A DNA stretch of 64,000 bases, from the NCBI GenBank assembly GCA_963710605.1, contig CAVQBA010000005.1, positions 96,001 through 160,000 of the forward strand, given 5' to 3'. This document shows positions 25,969 to 34,274 of the stretch, piece by piece. This DNA comes from an uncultured cyanobacterium (GTDB lineage Bacteria; Cyanobacteriota; Cyanobacteriia; Cyanobacteriales; Cyanobacteriaceae). The notes under the pieces are model-generated. The model was not told the DNA's origin and searched no databases. It worked only from the letters and a program-made list of their open reading frames with translations. The number at the start of each line of letters is the position of its first letter. Within the stretch, counting starts at the first letter, position 1. A program made the position numbers and the translations under genes.

Positions 25969-26018
25969 TTTCTCCTTTATCTACTATTTTATAGTTATAT
26001 CAAATACAAAAAATACTT

Positions 26019-26044
26019 CAGGGCGTAAGCATATACACCCCTAC
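26019..26044 (-). repeat. GTAG-type REP-like palindrome
   Basis: Minus strand GTAGGGGTGTA-TATGCT-TACGCCCTG. Confidence 0.55.
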
Positions 26045-26088
26045 AACAAATATAAAACTAACATTACTTACTTAAAACTCTTATTATT

Positions 26089-26436
26089 TTAATTTATTCT
26101 ATATTTAATATGATGTTGTTGACATAAAGACGTTATTTCACCGACTTGATTTTGTAAGAGGTTTTTAATTATATATTTTCGATCGTCACTAATTGCTTTA
26201 TATAATCTCATCAATGATATATCCTTTGAATTAGGATCAATATCATGAATAAATCTGATTGCTTCGATTGTAGTAGTATAACGATCGAAATATAAAGTTA
26301 GTTGATATTCTAATTCAATCTCAAGGTAACCTTCGATAATATTGCCATTTATTTTGTAACCACACTTTGAGCAAGATTGTATTTCACGTACACAAGACAC
26401 ATTTACATATTCTCCACCTTTTGATAAAGTTGGCAT
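26089..26436 (-). CDS. Small Cys-rich hypothetical protein; true start probably upstream
   Basis: Frame stays open upstream of ATG 26436 (NGYGIGESKLNNCPCCK), giving CPCC...CSKC. Confidence 0.5.
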   Translation of the reverse strand: MPTLSKGGEYVNVSCVREIQSCSKCGYKINGNIIEGYLEIELEYQLTLYFDRYTTTIEAIRFIHDIDPNSKDISLMRLYKAISDDRKYIIKNLLQNQVGEITSLCQQHHIKYRIN

Positions 26437-26497
26437 TTTACAACAAGGGCAATTATTTAATTTACTTTCACCAATGCCGTAGCCATTTATTATGTTT

Positions 26498-27211
26498 CTA
26501 AACTGGGTTGCTCAATCTAGCTACTTTCAAAAAAATAGTAAAAATTAGCTTCAGACAATATTTCATTATAATTGAAGATAGAATAAAAAATAATAAGCTC
26601 AAGATAATCAAAGGAGTAGTAAAGAAAAATAGTTTATTCGCAGTCTGAGTGAGCATCGATATATCTATATTCAGAAAATATACTAAATCAAAGGGTATAG
26701 TTTGAAACAAATTAACGTCTGAATAATAACTAAAAAAAGCCATAACATAAAACGAGACAGCCATTAAGAAATACATACCTGATATGAGAATCACTGCTTC
26801 TTTTTTAAATGCTAATGTCACGAATAAATAAACTATCAAAGTTCCTAAGAAAAAAGCGGCTGCTGTCGAATTCGTCATCAAACTTGGACAATAATTAAAA
26901 ATTCCTATCGATAACAATATACAGCTTATTTTTAAGGATACATTCTGTTCAAGCTGAAAAACAAAAGATTTAGCTATTACTTCTGAGTCATTTTCTCTAG
27001 CCCATTTTCCTAAGTTTTTTCTATATCTATTTAGGCTAAAATCTTTAATTTTTCTGGCAAATATAATAATTTTTCTTCTTATAAAATAGACACATAAACA
27101 AGATACACTTAAAAGTATAATCCATTGAAGGAAAGTAAAATTTTTAAAAAAGCAAAAAACTTCTATTCTAAAAAATAGTAAAACAGATAATATCCAACCT
27201 AAAAACTTCAT
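26498..27211 (-). CDS. Hypothetical multi-pass membrane protein
   Basis: Several hydrophobic helices; very AT-rich. Confidence 0.55.
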   Translation of the reverse strand: MKFLGWILSVLLFFRIEVFCFFKNFTFLQWIILLSVSCLCVYFIRRKIIIFARKIKDFSLNRYRKNLGKWARENDSEVIAKSFVFQLEQNVSLKISCILLSIGIFNYCPSLMTNSTAAAFFLGTLIVYLFVTLAFKKEAVILISGMYFLMAVSFYVMAFFSYYSDVNLFQTIPFDLVYFLNIDISMLTQTANKLFFFTTPLIILSLLFFILSSIIMKYCLKLIFTIFLKVARLSNPV

Positions 27212-27556
27212 CGCTCGCTCCTTTGTATTAACTATTCACATTTAGAGTCAATTTTAATCTTTAGTCAATGAGTCTAAGTTAAATTAGCCTAGACTAATGT
27301 AATCCAAATTACTATGATTATATTGAATTTTTTTCTGAACTACCTTAATCTTTACATTTATAAATAAAACAAAAAAACTTTTTTACTCAAAGATAGTTGT
27401 GATATTCTTACGGTACAACAATTGCTTGGATATGAAAGATGTTAAAACAACAATAATTTATCTCATTTATTTAATCGTTGTAGAAGTATTGAGAATTTTA
27501 GCTACTCTACATTCGTTGTGTCTTTCGGAGATTACTATCTGTTTTATAATTAAAAG

Positions 27557-28585
27557 ATGGAAAAACTTACTTTAACTCGCCCCGACGATTTTCATTTACA
27601 TTTACGTGATGGGGAAGCACTCAAAGCTGTTTTACCCCATACGGTGCGTACCTTTGCTCGTGCGATCGTTATGCCTAACTTGAAACCGCCGATACGATCG
27701 TATTTCGATGCTAAAGCTTATCGTGATCGGATCATTAAAGCAATACCCGCAGGCAAAAAGTTTGAGCCATTAATGACACTTTATCTGACTGATAACACAA
27801 CACCTGAAGATATTATTACCGCCAAAGCATCTGAGTTTGTAAAAGCAGTTAAATATTACCCCGCAGGTGCAACTACTAATTCAGAATCTGGTGTCACTGA
27901 TATTCGTAAATGCGATCGTGTTTTCTCAGCGATGCAGGAAGTTGATTTACCTTTATTGTTGCACGGAGAAGTAACCCATAAAGATGTTGATATATTCGAT
28001 CGTGAAAAAGTATTTATCGAGCAATATTTAATTCCTTTAAGACAACGTTTTCCGAAACTACGTATTGTCCTTGAACATATTACTACCTTAGATGCAGTCA
28101 AATTTGTTCTCGCTAATGACAACATAATGGCAACCATTACACCACAACATTTGTTATTTAATCGTAATAGTATCTTCAATGGTGGTATTCGCCCTCATTA
28201 TTATTGCCTACCAATTTTGAAACGAGAAACGCATCGTCAAGCACTTTTAGAAGCCGCCACTTCTGGTAATCCCAAGTTTTTTCTAGGCACTGATAGTGCG
28301 CCCCATTCACGTGATAAAAAAGAAAATGATTGTGGTTGTGCAGGTTGTTATTCAGCTTTACACGCTATTGAATTATATGCCGAAGTTTTTGAAAGTGTTA
28401 ATGCACTAGATAAATTAGAAGCTTTTGCCAGTTTTTATGGAGCAGATTTTTATCAACTTCCCCGTAATACCGAGCAAATTACCTTGATTAAAAACACTTG
28501 GCGTATTCCTGATAAACTTCCATTCACTGACTCTGAAATTGTACCTTTACGTGCAGGAGAAGAGATAACTTGGCAAATGGCATGA
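27557..28585 (+). CDS. pyrC: Dihydroorotase (E. coli-like class)
   Basis: [37 protein letters not shown]. Confidence 0.97.
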
Positions 28586-28683
28586 CCAAATTAGAAGCAA
28601 AATATTGAAACTAATCTACTTAAATTATGTTGGTAAATAGTTGAGGTAATTAAGATTGGTTGTTTAAGTAATTTTTATCAATG

Positions 28684-28872
28684 TTAATCTTTCCATTGTG
28701 TGCGACGATATCGCTTCCAATTTTTCATTCTTTTGCGAGTGTTAAGGGATTCGTAACACCATCGGTTCGATTTTAAACACCATTCACATAATCTTAATTC
28801 AGGATATATTTTTACTGCTCTATATCGAAAACTTTCAAATTGAGGATAATCATATTGATCGTATTGTAGTCC
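28684..28872 (-). other. Small ORF (3' part) at the IS605 insertion site
   Basis: GLQYDQYDYPQF...CEWC...NWKRYRRTQWKD lies outside the intron; the track ORF 28684..29106 is a chimera of this and intron DV/DVI sequence. Confidence 0.4.
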
Positions 28873-28873
28873 T

Positions 28874-31216
28874 ATCGGGTAAGGTTTGAGGGTCACCCCT
28901 CGCACCTCCCCTAGAACCGTACGTGTCAGTTTCCCAACATACGGCTCAAGCCTCACTTCAAGCCTTTGACTTGGTTTTTGAATGTACCTGTTTGTGACAA
29001 GCTTTATGCAGATGTACAAGGTTGTCAGCGGAATCATTACCGCCATCTGATACTGGTACGATGTGATGGGTTTCCAGCTCTTCTCCATTGAATAGATATT
29101 CTCCACAAATTTGGCATTTCCAATTTTGATTTACAGCTACTTGATAGTATTTACTACCTTTTGCCCAGTAATTTTTGCCCTGTTTTAATTTGCGGTTGTT
29201 CCAGTATTCACGGAGTGAGGGATTATCTGGACTAGCGTTGCCTCTGACTTTGACGTGTCTGATGATAGGGGTTCTAGCTATATTGTATAGGATACGAGTT
29301 TCTCTTTTCCTTTTCTTCCAGTTCCTTTACACATGAACCACCGTTTACTTCCTCTGAAGCGATGAAAATATTTGTTTTAATACCATCTTTTTGATTTGTT
29401 GGGATGTCTTCTTTTAGCCCAACGATAAAGGTAATGCCATACTCGATTTTCGATGTATGAGAAGGTTTCTTTGCTAACTGCACCTCTGTAGTAATTAGCA
29501 AAACCTCTGAGAAGTGGATTCAATTTTCTGATAACATTTTCTTGAGTCCGACGCCTTCATTTCTGATAGTGTTTTCCCTATCTTTTTACAGAAGGCAAGT
29601 ACTTTTTCTTTTTGAGGTTTAATCAATAACTTCCCTTTGTATTGGCGAAGGTTGAATCCTAAAAAGTCGAATCCGTCTTCTATATGAACTATCCTTGTCT
29701 TCTCAGCACTGATTTCTAGTTTTCTTTCGGATAACCATTGTCTTTATCTGGATAGATATAGTTTCTAAAGATTCTTTATCTTTTGCAGTGATTACAAAAT
29801 CATCTGCATATCTTATAAATCCTAGTTTTTTATTTTGGAACTTAACAAACTCTTCTAAACCATGTAAACCAATGTTGGCTAATAATGGACTAATCACTCC
29901 ACCTTGTGGTGTTCCAGCCTCAGTTGAGTTATAAACTCCCTTTATCTATGTATCCAGCTTTTAACCATTCTTTATTATAGCTCATTGGGATGAGATTCAA
30001 TCATAGTTTAGAATAGATTCATGAGAAATGTTATCGAAGAAACCTTTTATATCAGTGTCTAGAACCCATTTGTCTCTATTTAATTTACCACCCATGAGTC
30101 TTTTAAAACATTGCTCGATGGCATCCTGACAGCTTCGACCACATCTGAACCCATAGGTGTTAGGTTCAAATATGGCTTCCCATTCGGATTCTAGTGTATT
30201 TTTGACTATTGCTTGTGCAACTCTATCTCTCACATTTGGGATTCCGAGAGGACGTTTCTTGCCATTAGATTTGGGTATGTAAACCCGTTTTGTTGGAGCT
30301 GCTCTTGGCATTTTCCATTCATTGACAAGTTTTACTCGCTGTGCAGGGGTGTTTATCACCTCTTTGTCTATCCCTGCGGTTTGCTTTCCGTATTGACTTG
30401 AGTAATTTGTCTTACACTTAACAATAGGTTTGACAGACTCTTATTATCAATTTTTGCAGCCTTCTTAGCTGTTTCCATTGACCAAGTTTTCTGGCACGGA
30501 AAATTCGGCCTCGCAAATTCTTAACAACTTTATAGAGCTTTACGCCAGTTGACCTGACTCCAGTCCTTTAATTGTCTATTGTCTCCATTTATCAAAATTG
30601 CTTTTGACATCTAACTTTTAACTCCGTTTAGAATCGTTGTGTTTTCGTTTTGTCCGTATAAGACCTAGAGCAACGTCTGCTTTTACTTTCGTTCAGGGGC
30701 AAATTTTGAACCCCTATCTCAATAATTACAATCAAGCATTCGCTTCTTGCTCCATCTTTTACCCTCCAGAGATTTCCGTTTTTGTTACCTCAAACCTACT
30801 CATTGTTTGAGACTCTGTTGGGCTTACCCTGTTGTATCTTTTGGAGTTTTAATGTGGTTAGGATGGTTGACTATTGTGCGATGGAGGTTTTATTTCTACT
30901 TCCTTGTTAAAGTCAAGAACAAGGAATTATCCATTTACCATTTTGGTTCAAAGTCTATCAGGGATAATTTGACTTTTTCGGGAGTAACGCACTTTAATCA
31001 TCAACTTAGGCTACGTTCATCCTTCCACATCTTTCCCTCTAGCTCCTTACCGCTTAATCCCTAGCAGTTACGGCTACTTTTTAGGGTCTGCATTCCAACT
31101 GTTTCGTTACCTACTCGGTTGTGACCAAACTCTTTTGAGTTTTTTCTATGAGGGCAGGTGGTAGAAAACACCTGGGAGCTACACGCTCTGTTCCAATCGA
31201 CCAGTTCAGGTCGCAC
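28874..31216 (-). mobile_element. Group II intron (IIB, chloroplast-like lineage by inference), 2343 nt
   Basis: 5' GTGCG at 31216; DV GAGCCGTATGTTGGGAAACTGACACGTACGGTTC (28914-28947, AGC triad); DVI ending CCTT-A-CCCGAT with bulged A at -7; internal RT ORF. Confidence 0.95.
28958..30610 (-). pseudogene. ltrA: Intron-encoded RT/maturase/HNH endonuclease, multiply frameshifted
   Basis: Fragments MSKAIL..DWSQVNW / GKQTAGID / RPLGIP..RDR..Q / YGFRCGRSCQDAI / DIKGFFDNI / GTPQGGVISPLLANI / RYADDFV / CQICGE...HHIVP..GG....NL..LH..CH. Confidence 0.9.
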
Positions 31217-31253
31217 TGACATACTCCCGTCGCGCATGGGCGAGGGATTCTCC

Positions 31254-32528
31254 TCAACTCAACAAGTCTTTGAGAGAAGGGAGCGTTTTATCCTGACTGC
31301 CGCCCACAGCCAGCTTTTTAATTAGCAACGCAGAATTGTAGTCTCGGTCGCAGCTTAAACCACAGCTATCACATTCGTGCCAACGGTCACTTAGAGTTTT
31401 ACTGACTCTATTTAGACATTGACTACAATGCTGGCTAGTTCCTCTTGGATTAACTTTGACAATTCTAGTGCCGTACTTTTGGGCGACTATTTCTACTATT
31501 TCTAGGAAGTTCCCGACGGCATTGTCACTCCAAGATTTATTCATTCCAGAAGAAGAAGATTGTCCGTTCTTGACGAAAATACCGTCAACTTTCTTTGGCT
31601 TATTTCTACGCAACATGTTGCGGATTTTTAAATCCTCAATGGCTAAAACACTACAACTACTAGCTAATTTATGTGCCTGGTTATAGTGCCAATCTTTTCT
31701 AGCCCGCGCTATTTTTTGATGAAGTCTAGATATTGCCCGTCGCACGAGTCTTTTCGCCTTCACTGAACGGGTTTTATCTTCTAGTTTTCTCTGTAATTTA
31801 GCTAGTTTAGATTGAGATTTTCTAAGATGTCTTTGAGGTAAGGCTTGGTTTTCATTTGAATCTACATATAGTTTTTCGAGTCCAACGTCTATTCCAATTG
31901 TGTTTGAAAGAGTAGCAACTGTATCTATCTCTATTTCAGGAATAGATTTGTCTTCCACTGACAAGTTTACGTAGTAGCCATCTGCTTTTCTAGTTACAGA
32001 AACAGTTTTTAGCTTGAATCCAGATTCAATATCTCTGGAGTTGTGAAACTTAAGCACGCCTAGTTTTGGCAGTTTAATTGTGCTTTCCACTAAGTTTTTA
32101 TCTGGCACTTTGGGGAAGGTAAAGGTGCGATATCTAGCTTTATTTTTAAAGCGAGGTCGCCCACTTCTGTTGCCTTTTGAGTCTCCAGATTTGAATCTAT
32201 CAAACGCTAAGTTAACCCTTTTAACGCAGTCTTGAAGTACCTGAGAATATAATTCTCGATACCAAGGTCGCTCCTGCTTAAGTTGAGGCAAGGTAGCTGA
32301 CTGGCTGTGCCAATCGGGGTTGTTTCTTAACTCTCCACTGCCTATTTCACACCACCGAGCGCAATAGTTGCCTTGAGGAATTACCAGATTACAGCGATTC
32401 ATTTGCCACCAGCGAAATCTATCAGCCAACAAATAGTTGTACTGATGACGTAACATATCCAACCATCGGTCAATTTCTTGACGCTGGCTAGCTGTGGGAA
32501 TCAATTTGTACTGGTAGGTTTTTCTCAT
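31254..32528 (-). CDS. tnpB: RNA-guided endonuclease TnpB
   Basis: RuvC-I GIDVGL, RuvC-II AIEDL, Zn finger CSQC..CDSC, RuvC-III DRDYNSA; all catalytic residues present. Confidence 0.96.
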   Translation of the reverse strand: MRKTYQYKLIPTASQRQEIDRWLDMLRHQYNYLLADRFRWWQMNRCNLVIPQGNYCARWCEIGSGELRNNPDWHSQSATLPQLKQERPWYRELYSQVLQDCVKRVNLAFDRFKSGDSKGNRSGRPRFKNKARYRTFTFPKVPDKNLVESTIKLPKLGVLKFHNSRDIESGFKLKTVSVTRKADGYYVNLSVEDKSIPEIEIDTVATLSNTIGIDVGLEKLYVDSNENQALPQRHLRKSQSKLAKLQRKLEDKTRSVKAKRLVRRAISRLHQKIARARKDWHYNQAHKLASSCSVLAIEDLKIRNMLRRNKPKKVDGIFVKNGQSSSSGMNKSWSDNAVGNFLEIVEIVAQKYGTRIVKVNPRGTSQHCSQCLNRVSKTLSDRWHECDSCGLSCDRDYNSALLIKKLAVGGSQDKTLPSLKDLLS

Positions 32529-33018
32529 GGTAAGATACAGTTTATTATTAACTGTACATAAAAGTCAAGCTTTGAAAATTAACTATCGTAGTAGTCGTAG
32601 AGCAGTGTTTAATTTAACCGTTCACATTGTTCTAGTAACAAAGTACCGACGAAAGGTGATTGATGCTGCTATGAAAACAGAATTAGAGCTTGTGTTCAAT
32701 TCGGTATTAACTTCTTGGGACAGTGAGTTACTCGAGTTTAATTGTGAGTCAGACCACGCTCATTTAATCGTGTCATTCCCACCACACAAGCTTTTAAGTA
32801 GTTTAATATCTAATTTAAAAGCCACATCATCAAAGACAATGTGGCGCAAGTTCGAGTCAAAAGTTTCTCCGTTCTACAGCAAGAGAGTTTTTTGGACGGG
32901 TGCGTATTTTGTAGCAAGCTGCGGAGGAGTTACGATAGATGTACTGAAAAAATATGTCCAAAACCAAGATTCTCCACCACCCAAGCCAGCCCAAAATTCA
33001 TCCCATCACGGGACGTGA
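32527..33018 (+). CDS. tnpA: Y1 HUH transposase TnpA (start may be TTG 32572)
   Basis: HIVLVTKYRRKV, DHAHL (HUH), FWTGAYF, catalytic Y in KKYVQNQ. Confidence 0.95.
   Translation: MVRYSLLLTVHKSQALKINYRSSRRAVFNLTVHIVLVTKYRRKVIDAAMKTELELVFNSVLTSWDSELLEFNCESDHAHLIVSFPPHKLLSSLISNLKATSSKTMWRKFESKVSPFYSKRVFWTGAYFVASCGGVTIDVLKKYVQNQDSPPPKPAQNSSHHGT
32539..32568 (-). promoter_or_regulatory. Possible sigma70 promoter for tnpB
   Basis: TTGACT-N18-TAAACT ending 10 nt before the tnpB ATG, overlapping a TACAGTT/AACTGTA inverted repeat. Confidence 0.35.
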
Positions 33019-33244
33019 GGATCTTCTTTTGGAAGAAAAGATAAATAATGATTAAATACAGTTTGGTTGCTTTGATTATACAAGTTTAGACAACTACAAA
33101 CAAAATTGTACCAAAATATAATACTTTTTACTTGTTGTTTAGAGATGGAGAGTAAACTCTACAATACAATCAAAATGAATCAAGTTTGATTATGTCAAAA
33201 TAGATGTAATACATATAAATGAGCTAAAAATTGATTATTAACTA

Positions 33245-33796
33245 ATGAATATTAATTGGGATAAACTAGCACAAGTACCAGAATTGCACTCTTATTTTGA
33301 GGAAGACTTTTCCGGGTTTAAAAATAAAATTGAAAAATACTTACAACAATGGTCAAATATCAGTGAGGAAGACTTAGATAAATTAGCCATATTAAGAGCA
33401 TTAGAAGTTACCAATGGTTGTACCCAATGGGCGCATCGTCGAGGAGATGAAGAGTCTTTATCTCTTGAGCAAACCCGTAAATGTATGAAGCTATCCATGT
33501 CTTCAATTAAAAATAAACAAATTGATTTAACTAATGGTGAATCGATTACTTTTTCGCCTCAAATGCAAGAGTTAATTGAAGATGGTAGAGAAATTTATAT
33601 AAATGCTTTTAAAAATAATGTACCAGATCAAGACCGAGAATTTTATGCCTTATCTGCCGCTCAATTTCTCACTTACGGTAAACCAAGAATGAAAAAAGCG
33701 TTTTTGCTCATTCGTGATAATTATGAAGATTATTTTACTGATTTCTATCTAGCAAAAGGAGTTAGTTATGTTGTACCTTATTTACAAGCAGTTTAA
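33245..33796 (+). CDS. Conserved hypothetical protein
   Basis: 183-aa ORF with LRALEVTNGCTQWAHRRGD; no family recognised. Confidence 0.7.
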   Translation: MNINWDKLAQVPELHSYFEEDFSGFKNKIEKYLQQWSNISEEDLDKLAILRALEVTNGCTQWAHRRGDEESLSLEQTRKCMKLSMSSIKNKQIDLTNGESITFSPQMQELIEDGREIYINAFKNNVPDQDREFYALSAAQFLTYGKPRMKKAFLLIRDNYEDYFTDFYLAKGVSYVVPYLQAV

Positions 33797-33953
33797 AAAA
33801 TTAATCGTTGAACTTGAGAGATTTGATTTAACATTATTAAATAAACATCTTGCATATTTAACAAAACCTCAATGTTAGCGATTAATAACTAAACGATCGA
33901 TCTAATTAACTAATCGCTAACTAAAAAAACATAATAATTAATTACTTAATTAC

Positions 33954-34274
33954 TTAATTACTTTGACCAAATTGACGATCGTAAACCTCATCTTCTTTCC
34001 CTGTTTCCACCTTCAGATTCGATCGAGGATAAGAAACACATAATAAAGCATAACCCTCAGCCTGCAAATCAGGAGATAAACCCATCCCCTCACTTTGCTC
34101 AACTTCACCACTAATAATTTTCGCCGCACAAGTGGTACAAACTCCAGCATTACAAGAAGAAGGAAGAGGTAAATCTTGCTCTTGAGCAACATCTAAAATT
34201 TTCTTGTCTTCGGGGACTTCAATTGTATAATTTTCCCCAGCGTTACTAATTTCTACCGTATAAACCTGACTCAT
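33954..34274 (-). CDS. Plant-type 2Fe-2S ferredoxin (FdC1/Fed3-like)
   Basis: SCNAGVCTTC...LLCVSYPRS; C-terminal EDEVYDRQFG. Confidence 0.92.
   Translation of the reverse strand: MSQVYTVEISNAGENYTIEVPEDKKILDVAQEQDLPLPSSCNAGVCTTCAAKIISGEVEQSEGMGLSPDLQAEGYALLCVSYPRSNLKVETGKEDEVYDRQFGQSN

Follow-up and report, generated by a model that had tools for sequence, protein, structure and literature searches.

Cyanobacterial group II introns that home to a conserved site in an IS200-family element are already known. As described by Mohr, Ghanem and Lambowitz (2010, PMC2882425), three F4 introns of Thermosynechococcus elongatus reside at such a site in ISEL1, and insertion into other mobile elements is named there as a mechanism of proliferation. 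Here, we analyse a 64,000-nucleotide stretch of DNA from an uncultured cyanobacterium (the window; GenBank assembly GCA_963710605.1, contig CAVQBA010000005.1, positions 96,001 to 160,000), in which a decayed group II intron appears, by comparison with homologous elements, to lie inside the last four bases of the right end (RE) of an IS605-type transposon. The exon-binding sites (EBS) of the intron pair with the RE itself, and related introns occupy the same motif in other genomes. What looks new is the exact site, which would be both the cleavage tetranucleotide of the transposase TnpA and the scaffold/guide junction of the TnpB guide RNA. No report of a group II intron at either position was found in a search of the main texts of published papers.

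The window intron shares several properties with the F4 introns. Both are CL/IIB1-type cyanobacterial introns at a conserved IS200-family site that is recognised mostly by base pairing, and the published account of the F4 introns also includes degenerate copies, or copies lacking an open reading frame (ORF), that are mobilised in trans, as well as twintron sites in the same intron group (PMC2882425). The present case differs in that the site can be assigned to the cleavage tetranucleotide of the RE, is used in several genera and at three registers, and is occupied in the window by a fossil copy; the position in ISEL1 enters this comparison through its published description only. A second precedent is the IStron, in which a self-splicing intron shares RNA with the guide RNA of a tnpB element and, in the account of 10.1101/2023.11.20.567912, splicing may compete with guide formation. 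An IStron is one chimeric element of the IS605/IS607 type, in which the whole insertion sequence (IS) is the intron, the ribozyme belongs to group I and movement depends on the transposase, whereas the window contains an independent, nested group II retroelement. An Rfam search of positions 26000–34000 returned group II models only and no group I intron, which sets this locus apart from IStrons.

Class C (IIC) introns lack an endonuclease (En) domain and use a short intron-binding site 1 (IBS1) together with a stem–loop. Like the window intron, they insert just 3′ of a DNA stem–loop of another genetic element, as outlined in PMC7923331. Unlike them, the window intron pairs through EBS1, EBS2 and EBS3, and its lineage carries an HNH domain. 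The transposon itself resembles IS608 and ISDra2, in which, as described in PMC3201880 and PMC8612924, four guide nucleotides lie 5′ of the hairpin foot and the retained cleavage tetranucleotide TCAA lies a few bases 3′ of it. It has the divergent gene order of the IS605 group, and its guide RNA is predicted. In the TnpB system as presented in PMC8612924, this RNA (reRNA) is a transcript of ~150 nt that runs from the 3′ end of tnpB through the RE, with ~16 nt of flank serving as the guide.

The right end and its conserved block

The element is read on the minus strand in the order left end (LE), tnpA (on the opposite strand), tnpB, RE, intron and a final A. Up to the intron, the RE spans positions 31217–31250 and consists of the guide tetranucleotide GAAT (31250–31247), an imperfect hairpin (31246–31226) and AGTATGTCA (31225–31217). 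It reads GAGAAT-CCCTCGCCCATGCGCGACGGG-AGTATGTCA, so that the element side of the junction takes the form GAAT-hairpin-GTATGTCA. The 5′ exon ends ...GAGAATCCCTCGCCCATGCGCGACGGGAGTATGTCA, the intron starts with GTGCG at 31216 and ends ..ACCCGAT at 28874, and the base that follows is an A (28873). From 28872 onward (GGACTAC...), the flanking DNA is unrelated to the element. An earlier, sequence-only reading of this locus had given the same coordinates and strings, all of which are correct.

The RE boundary was defined with a tnpB protein search followed by inspection of 29 homologous loci, of which 15 gave intron-less right ends (tnpB identity 49–78%). Homologues of this tnpB are common, being present at E ≤ 1e-60 in 183 of 401 genomes of the order. 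All 15 intron-less ends read ..GGGAGTATGTCA, a few with one or two changes, followed by A or C and then by complete divergence. The four close homologues (L165, L166, L167 and L170) have GAAT 5′ of the hairpin and a TCAA end, and the eleven distant ones have GAAG and a TCAC end. The guide base (T or G) therefore covaries with the last base (A or C) in 15/15 sequences (alignment A1), and the window shows GAAT together with TCA, the intron and A. The hairpin pairs carry compensatory changes among the homologues in the same alignment, and these changes are its support, as the fold by itself is not significant (z −0.82).

In IS608, the guide is GAAT. The IS608 rule, in the form given in PMC3201880, places the cleavage site a few bases 3′ of the hairpin foot, where it is read by the 4-nt guide 5′ of the foot, and TCAA stays in the excised element; by analogy, the covariation pattern of the RE fits this rule. 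Because the homologous ends finish in TCAA or TCAC with covarying guide and cleavage bases, the window element is read from sequence comparison as ending in TCAA, with the intron between TCA and A, in agreement with the IS608-type right end proposed earlier. In a large family of cyanobacterial tnpB elements, no nucleotide block is better conserved than the 14 bases CGGGAGT-ATGTCA-A. These bases comprise IBS2 (CGGGAGT, 31229–31223) and IBS1 (ATGTCA, 31222–31217), both within the RE, and IBS3, the last RE base A at 28873 on the minus strand.

Exon pairing, intron decay and the host transposon

EBS2 (ACUCCCG, 30979–30985, minus strand) pairs at 7/7 positions with exon −13 to −7 (CGGGAGU). EBS1 is presented by a hairpin (30900–30926, minus strand) for which a local fold gives a 9-bp stem (30926–30918/30908–30900) and the 9-nt loop CUUGACUUU; within it, UGACUU (30915–30910) pairs at 5/6 positions with AUGUCA (exon −6 to −1). 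EBS3 is a U at 30873 on the minus strand (intron position 344), opposite the A at +1 (28873). Across the 14 introns with both ends defined, the EBS3 column is Watson–Crick to the first 3′ exon base in 13, and a 15th intron has a gap at this column. Taken together, EBS2, EBS1 and EBS3 pair with 13 of the 14 target positions in the window, and these positions, −13 to +1, coincide exactly with the conserved terminal block of the RE.

We then scored this pairing across the intron family. Domain I was aligned with a profile built from 13 related introns, and 46 distinct intron/exon pairs were scored at the two alignment positions that the sequence-only reading had proposed for EBS1 and EBS2. With their own exons, the 46 introns reach means of 5.39/6 (EBS1) and 5.20/7 (EBS2). 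Swapping exons among introns lowers the means to 2.60 and 2.75, and across 1000 shuffles they reach no more than 3.20 and 3.28. The EBS1 and EBS2 columns covary with the exons beyond chance. The proposed sites, including the 9-bp stem and its loop, are the true ones, and EBS3 can now be added to them.

The intron (28874–31216, minus strand) is 2343 nt long and lies on the same strand as tnpB. A look-up of sequencing runs for positions 28600–31500 returned none. Its 3′ terminus is homologous to those of 18 other introns, which end in ..ACCCGA[T/C]. Domains V and VI occupy 28880–28947 on the minus strand, with domain V at 28947–28914; Rfam RF00029 matches this region at 28879–28949 (minus strand) with 53.4 bits (gathering score 40, E 1.4e-08). 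The domain VI helix, read by eye, contains a bulged branch-point A at 28880, 7 nt from the 3′ splice site. GUGYG/AY ends, domain V, the bulged A of domain VI and EBS/IBS pairing are all present, as in group II introns. The assignment to subgroup IIB (chloroplast-like type) is a probable one, made from domain V similarity and from resemblance to the T. elongatus and EcI5-type introns as they are characterised in PMC2882425. In a phylum sample, homologues of domain I occur in 26 other genomes among 400 (27/401 including its own).

The intron-encoded protein gene is a non-functional remnant (28964–30610, minus strand) with reverse transcriptase (RT), X and HNH endonuclease parts. A tblastn comparison with the open protein of the related intron L016 breaks it into three pieces (frames 1, 3 and 1), and the aligned frames contain 11 stop codons. 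In Pfam, RVT_1 is found on two of the pieces and HNH on the last, and nothing else scores; the related proteins of L002 and L061 carry RVT_1, GIIM and HNH, and that of L002 also RVT_N. The window intron is present as a single copy in its own genome, where the pattern GGAG[G/T]AT[G/A]TCA has ten matches. About five of these are unoccupied right ends of the same architecture, including near-perfect targets (..TGGGAGTATGTCA). With its protein gene destroyed, one mismatch in EBS1 and empty targets in the same genome, the window intron is a fossil that is not spreading now. Outside the window, the same genome holds a second, distant group II intron (L002, C5:22612-24980; 66% identity) with an intact 570-aa RT–maturase–HNH protein, which is the sole candidate for a trans-acting maturase in this genome.

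The transposon genes next to the intron are free of lesions. The tnpB gene (31254–32528, minus strand) encodes an intact protein of 424 aa with the Pfam domains OrfB_IS605, Cas12f1-like_TNB and HTH_OrfB_IS605. The intact tnpA gene (32527–33018, plus strand) encodes a Y1 (HUH) transposase of 163 aa (Pfam Y1_Tnp, E 4e-35) and is divergent from tnpB. This arrangement of a Y1 TnpA and a TnpB places the element in the IS605 group of the IS200/IS605 family. The LE (33001–33040, minus strand) has a subterminal imperfect hairpin (33021–33001), and its outer boundary, at ~33040/33041 between ..TTAT and CTTTTC.., is uncertain by a few bases. In an alignment with three homologous elements, similarity begins near CT.TCTTC, directly after TTAT or TTAC. 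All four elements have TTAT or TTAC as the LE flank, and the hairpin region is conserved among them. In the window, this hairpin (33001–33021) overlaps the last codons and the stop codon of tnpA. The element is single copy in its own genome; an empty site matching the RE flank was not found in 19 other genomes of the family, and the IS ends are placed by comparison with homologues. By analogy with the RNA described in PMC8612924, the scaffold of the guide RNA (omega/reRNA) is expected to be transcribed from the 3′ part of tnpB together with the RE. The tnpB 3′ region is conserved and partly covarying (alignment A1), and no Rfam guide-RNA or IS605 RNA family matched at E ≤ 1 in 26000–34000.

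Related introns at the right end and elsewhere

An unselected scan compared the intron 5′ end with species-representative genomes and yielded at least 119 stretches holding at least 120 matches. Among the matches listed, 74 are real introns by profile, and 71 of these have at least 40 nt upstream. Within those 71, a right end of the form GAAT-hairpin-GGGAG[G/T]ATG.. precedes L061, L075 and L153, and a partial one precedes L117. Another three (L047, L090 and L096) lie directly 3′ of a tnpB ORF, L074 shares the target of L090 and L096, and L068 lies within a tnpB ORF. The domain I search of the phylum added L021, at a right end beside a tnpB remnant, and L042, within a tnpB ORF. Junction-specific patterns run against the 401 genomes of the order identified the occupied junction in G583 (two copies, L241 and L242), in G032 and in the source genome of the window. 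Applied to metagenome contigs, the junction patterns returned 45 stretches, among which the introns are L197, L203 and L199 (a 12-nt remnant) only; the remaining 42 match coding DNA by chance.

These insertions use three registers of the same motif. At register 0 (after TGTCA), the window intron is joined by L197, which has the same EBS2 (7/7) and a perfect EBS1, UGACAU (6/6). Register −2 (after GGATGT) is used by L021, L203, L241 and L242, each with an EBS1 that pairs at 6/6 positions; L153 has the same junction, and its EBS region lies beyond the contig end. L061 occupies register −3 (after AGTATG), and its 3′ exon, TCAA, rebuilds the element end. The EBS3 bases also fit the RE base expected at +1, judged against that expectation even where the 3′ exon is missing: G in L197 (TCA followed by C), G in L203, L241 and L242 (GT followed by CA) and A in L061 (G followed by TCAA). 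The L021 intron breaks off before the EBS3 column. L061 carries an internal deletion, and contig ends truncate L197, L203, L241 and L242.

Shorter pieces of related introns are found at similar places. Intron 5′ fragments follow right-end-like termini in L075 (46 nt, after ..GGATGTCA), L199 (12 nt, after ..GTATGTCA) and L117 (~60 nt, after ..GAGGATGT), and a ~118-nt 5′ fragment in L029, with its EBS region missing, follows a hairpin and ..GTTCA. Beyond all four fragments lies unrelated DNA. Because incomplete reverse transcription leaves 3′ rather than 5′ fragments, another process removes the rest of these introns. L123 is an intron of the L021 type in a coding sequence ending ..ELDVVAGGGY, at a motif-like site (after ..GGGGGGAGGATAC), and it probably represents an ectopic event; it also carries a palindromic insert of ~70 nt within domain I, at about intron position 111.

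In a tree built with the EBS columns masked, the window intron groups with L042 and then with L016 and L017, which are at other sites, and L197 falls on a different branch despite its identical EBS2 and matching EBS1. A sub-clade of 15 tips contains six RE-resident and two ORF-resident introns, in a sample enriched by junction-selected sequences that gives no frequency. The sequence-only reading had envisaged a single intron lineage homing to IS605 right ends. The presence of related introns with matching EBS in the RE motif supports the homing part of that claim, and their scatter in the tree speaks against a single lineage. The comparison of the flanks of homologous introns, in which unrelated 5′ flanks had been named as a refutation, is likewise mixed, with several relatives in the RE motif and the closest ones, L042 and L016, at other sites. 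The right end had also been described as a multicopy target, which overstates its abundance: the four genomes checked hold about 2–7 intact RE termini each.

Several of the other sites also belong to IS605-family elements. L042 lies in a tnpB ORF, between ..EAYTSKASFL and DND.., and has lost much of its protein gene (intron of 1879 nt). In L046, a related intron interrupts a tnpB ORF and is followed by tnpB residues of about 327–400, possibly at the same site as L042. In G689, a single metagenome-assembled genome, L250, L251 and L252 occupy one conserved site (after ..TG[A/G]GGTGGGACGCATC) and L249 is empty, which looks like recent homing within one genome. This site belongs to a different tnpB family and lies in its 3′ part; according to the empty copy, at least ~70 nt of element follow it. 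The target of L074, L090 and L096 was considered as a second right end and rejected, as the intron-less L249 has ~70 nt or more of element beyond it. The target of L016 consists of GAAT, a hairpin and ..GGGATGAATTGTGAC and resembles an IS605 end, and neither tnpA nor tnpB was found within 1.5 kb upstream or 4 kb downstream of it. A recurrent target of the form ..GGGATGAAT..GAC is used by L016, L107, L144 and L152, and GGGATGAAT also occurs inside the LE of the window element. In ten loci (L052, L079, L092, L118, L024, L071, L100, L122, L125 and L081), the 5′ exon starts GTGCGATTCGTT.., the start of another group II intron; these loci are thus twintrons, and at least two conserved inner sites are used.

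A general rule that fits all of these cases is that introns guided by base pairing repeatedly take conserved sequences of IS605-family elements as their homes. Among these sequences, the terminus of the right end is one favoured target because it holds the best-conserved 14 nt.

Probable homing to the right end and the predicted guide-RNA junction

The best explanation for the locus, and in our judgement a very probable one, is that a group IIB intron ribonucleoprotein retrohomed into the top (tnpB-sense) strand of an IS605-type right end. EBS2, EBS1 and EBS3 of the intron RNA would pair with CGGGAGT-ATGTCA-A, and the intron would reverse splice into the top strand between TCA and A. A protein with reverse transcriptase, maturase and HNH endonuclease activities would then cleave the bottom strand and synthesise complementary DNA. 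As the most conserved nucleotide block of the tnpB family, the 14 bases offer a recurring, host-neutral and transcribed landing site, to which related introns have tuned their EBS at three registers, as they have to other conserved IS605 sites.

Several observations weigh against this explanation. The occupied junction is rare, being found in 3/401 genomes of the order as compared with 183/401 that hold a close tnpB, and L197, L203, L241 and L242 were found with a pattern that requires the junction, so they document recurrence and not frequency. EBS1 has one mismatch in the window, and in L061 it reaches 5/6 only by passing over an inserted U. The RE-resident introns do not form a single clade, and the closest relatives of the window intron (80% identity) are elsewhere, L042 inside a tnpB ORF and L016 at another site. 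Finally, tnpA and tnpB are intact beside a stop-riddled intron protein gene, which is odd if the element was immobilised long ago; the intron may have arrived already degenerate, mobilised in trans.

Part of this pattern could arise if the insertion were a one-off ectopic retrotransposition, in which the intron reached by chance a site similar to its true target, with no general meaning to be read from the RE location. The single copies of both intron and IS in their own genome, the 5/6 match of EBS1 and the other sites of the closest relatives are consistent with such an event, and we nevertheless regard it as highly improbable, since 13/14 target positions pair, an intron on an unrelated contig (L197) has the same EBS2, a perfect EBS1 and the same RE position, and at least six further loci lie in the motif at register −2 or −3, with EBS tuned to it wherever that region is present. 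Targeting might instead be driven by structure and not by sequence, with the IS605 end recognised as a single strand or a hairpin in the manner of class C introns at terminator or attC stem–loops. IS200/IS605 ends are described as acting in single-stranded form (PMC3201880), the insertion site is 9 nt 3′ of the conserved hairpin, and IBS2 overlaps the 3′ arm of this hairpin. EBS2/EBS1/EBS3 pairing, however, explains the site at every register, and relatives occupy ORF positions that have no such hairpin. The En (HNH) domain in the intron protein lineage, unlike class C introns, points in the same direction, and structure-driven recognition is very unlikely. The reverse order of events, in which the IS inserted beside a pre-existing intron, is refuted by the way the end is divided and by the EBS match: the intron separates the final RE base, A, from the rest of the element, the intron EBS are complementary to the RE itself, and L061 is divided in a like manner, with TCAA 3′ of its intron.

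Retrohoming to the right end leaves the consequences of insertion to be considered, and it is here that a functional reading has been weighed. Insertion would change the cleavage tetranucleotide from TCAA to TCAG, and would alter it further at registers −2 and −3; with the tetranucleotide altered, TnpA cleavage at the occupied end is likely to be impaired. Under the guide-RNA model of PMC8612924, the unspliced RNA would by analogy carry intron sequence in place of the ~16-nt guide. TnpB binding and splicing could also compete, as in IStrons, since IBS1 and IBS2 would form the last 13 nt of the scaffold. On this basis, the intron might be a working regulator or antagonist of the TnpB RNA-guided system, such that the unspliced RNA gives an intron-derived guide or none, the spliced RNA gives the flank guide, and TnpB–scaffold binding competes with splicing. 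This is a tentative proposal that we think doubtful. It draws on the location of IBS1 and IBS2, which make up the final 13 nt of the conserved block in the RE, on the ~16 nt after the RE that serve as guide in the published description (PMC8612924), and on the IStron precedent for conflict between intron and guide RNA (10.1101/2023.11.20.567912). That all three registers lie at most 4 nt from the end, and that the decayed intron adjoins an intact tnpA and tnpB, would also suit a regulator. Against it, related introns also occupy IS605 sites far from the junction (in the tnpB ORF, or ~70 nt or more upstream of the end), conserved sequence alone accounts for the choice of site, and occupancy is rare.

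In its broadest form, the proposal would make a set of cyanobacterial group II introns hyperparasites of tnpB transposons that land on the scaffold–guide junction, a position that doubles as the TnpA cleavage tetranucleotide. An inserted intron would deprive the host element of both transposition and RNA-guided homing, and the contest between splicing and TnpB binding for the same 13 nt would determine whether a functional guide RNA forms. Such a conflict would be the group II equivalent of that in IStrons, played out between two independent mobile elements, and we hold it to be conceivable but on balance rather unlikely. Cas12 descends from tnpB elements of the IS605 family, which now also serve as genome editors. 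Two functions, TnpA cleavage and the guide-RNA scaffold, coincide in the right end of these elements, and a retroelement that repeatedly targets exactly that end is a natural experiment on how far this end tolerates disturbance, as well as a possible natural antagonist of TnpB homing. Should the interplay be true, it would be directly testable with existing TnpB and group II intron assays; should it not be real, the locus would still be a clean, well-mapped new example of an intron nested in a transposon, and one that illustrates how introns guided by base pairing find safe, conserved places to land in compact genomes.

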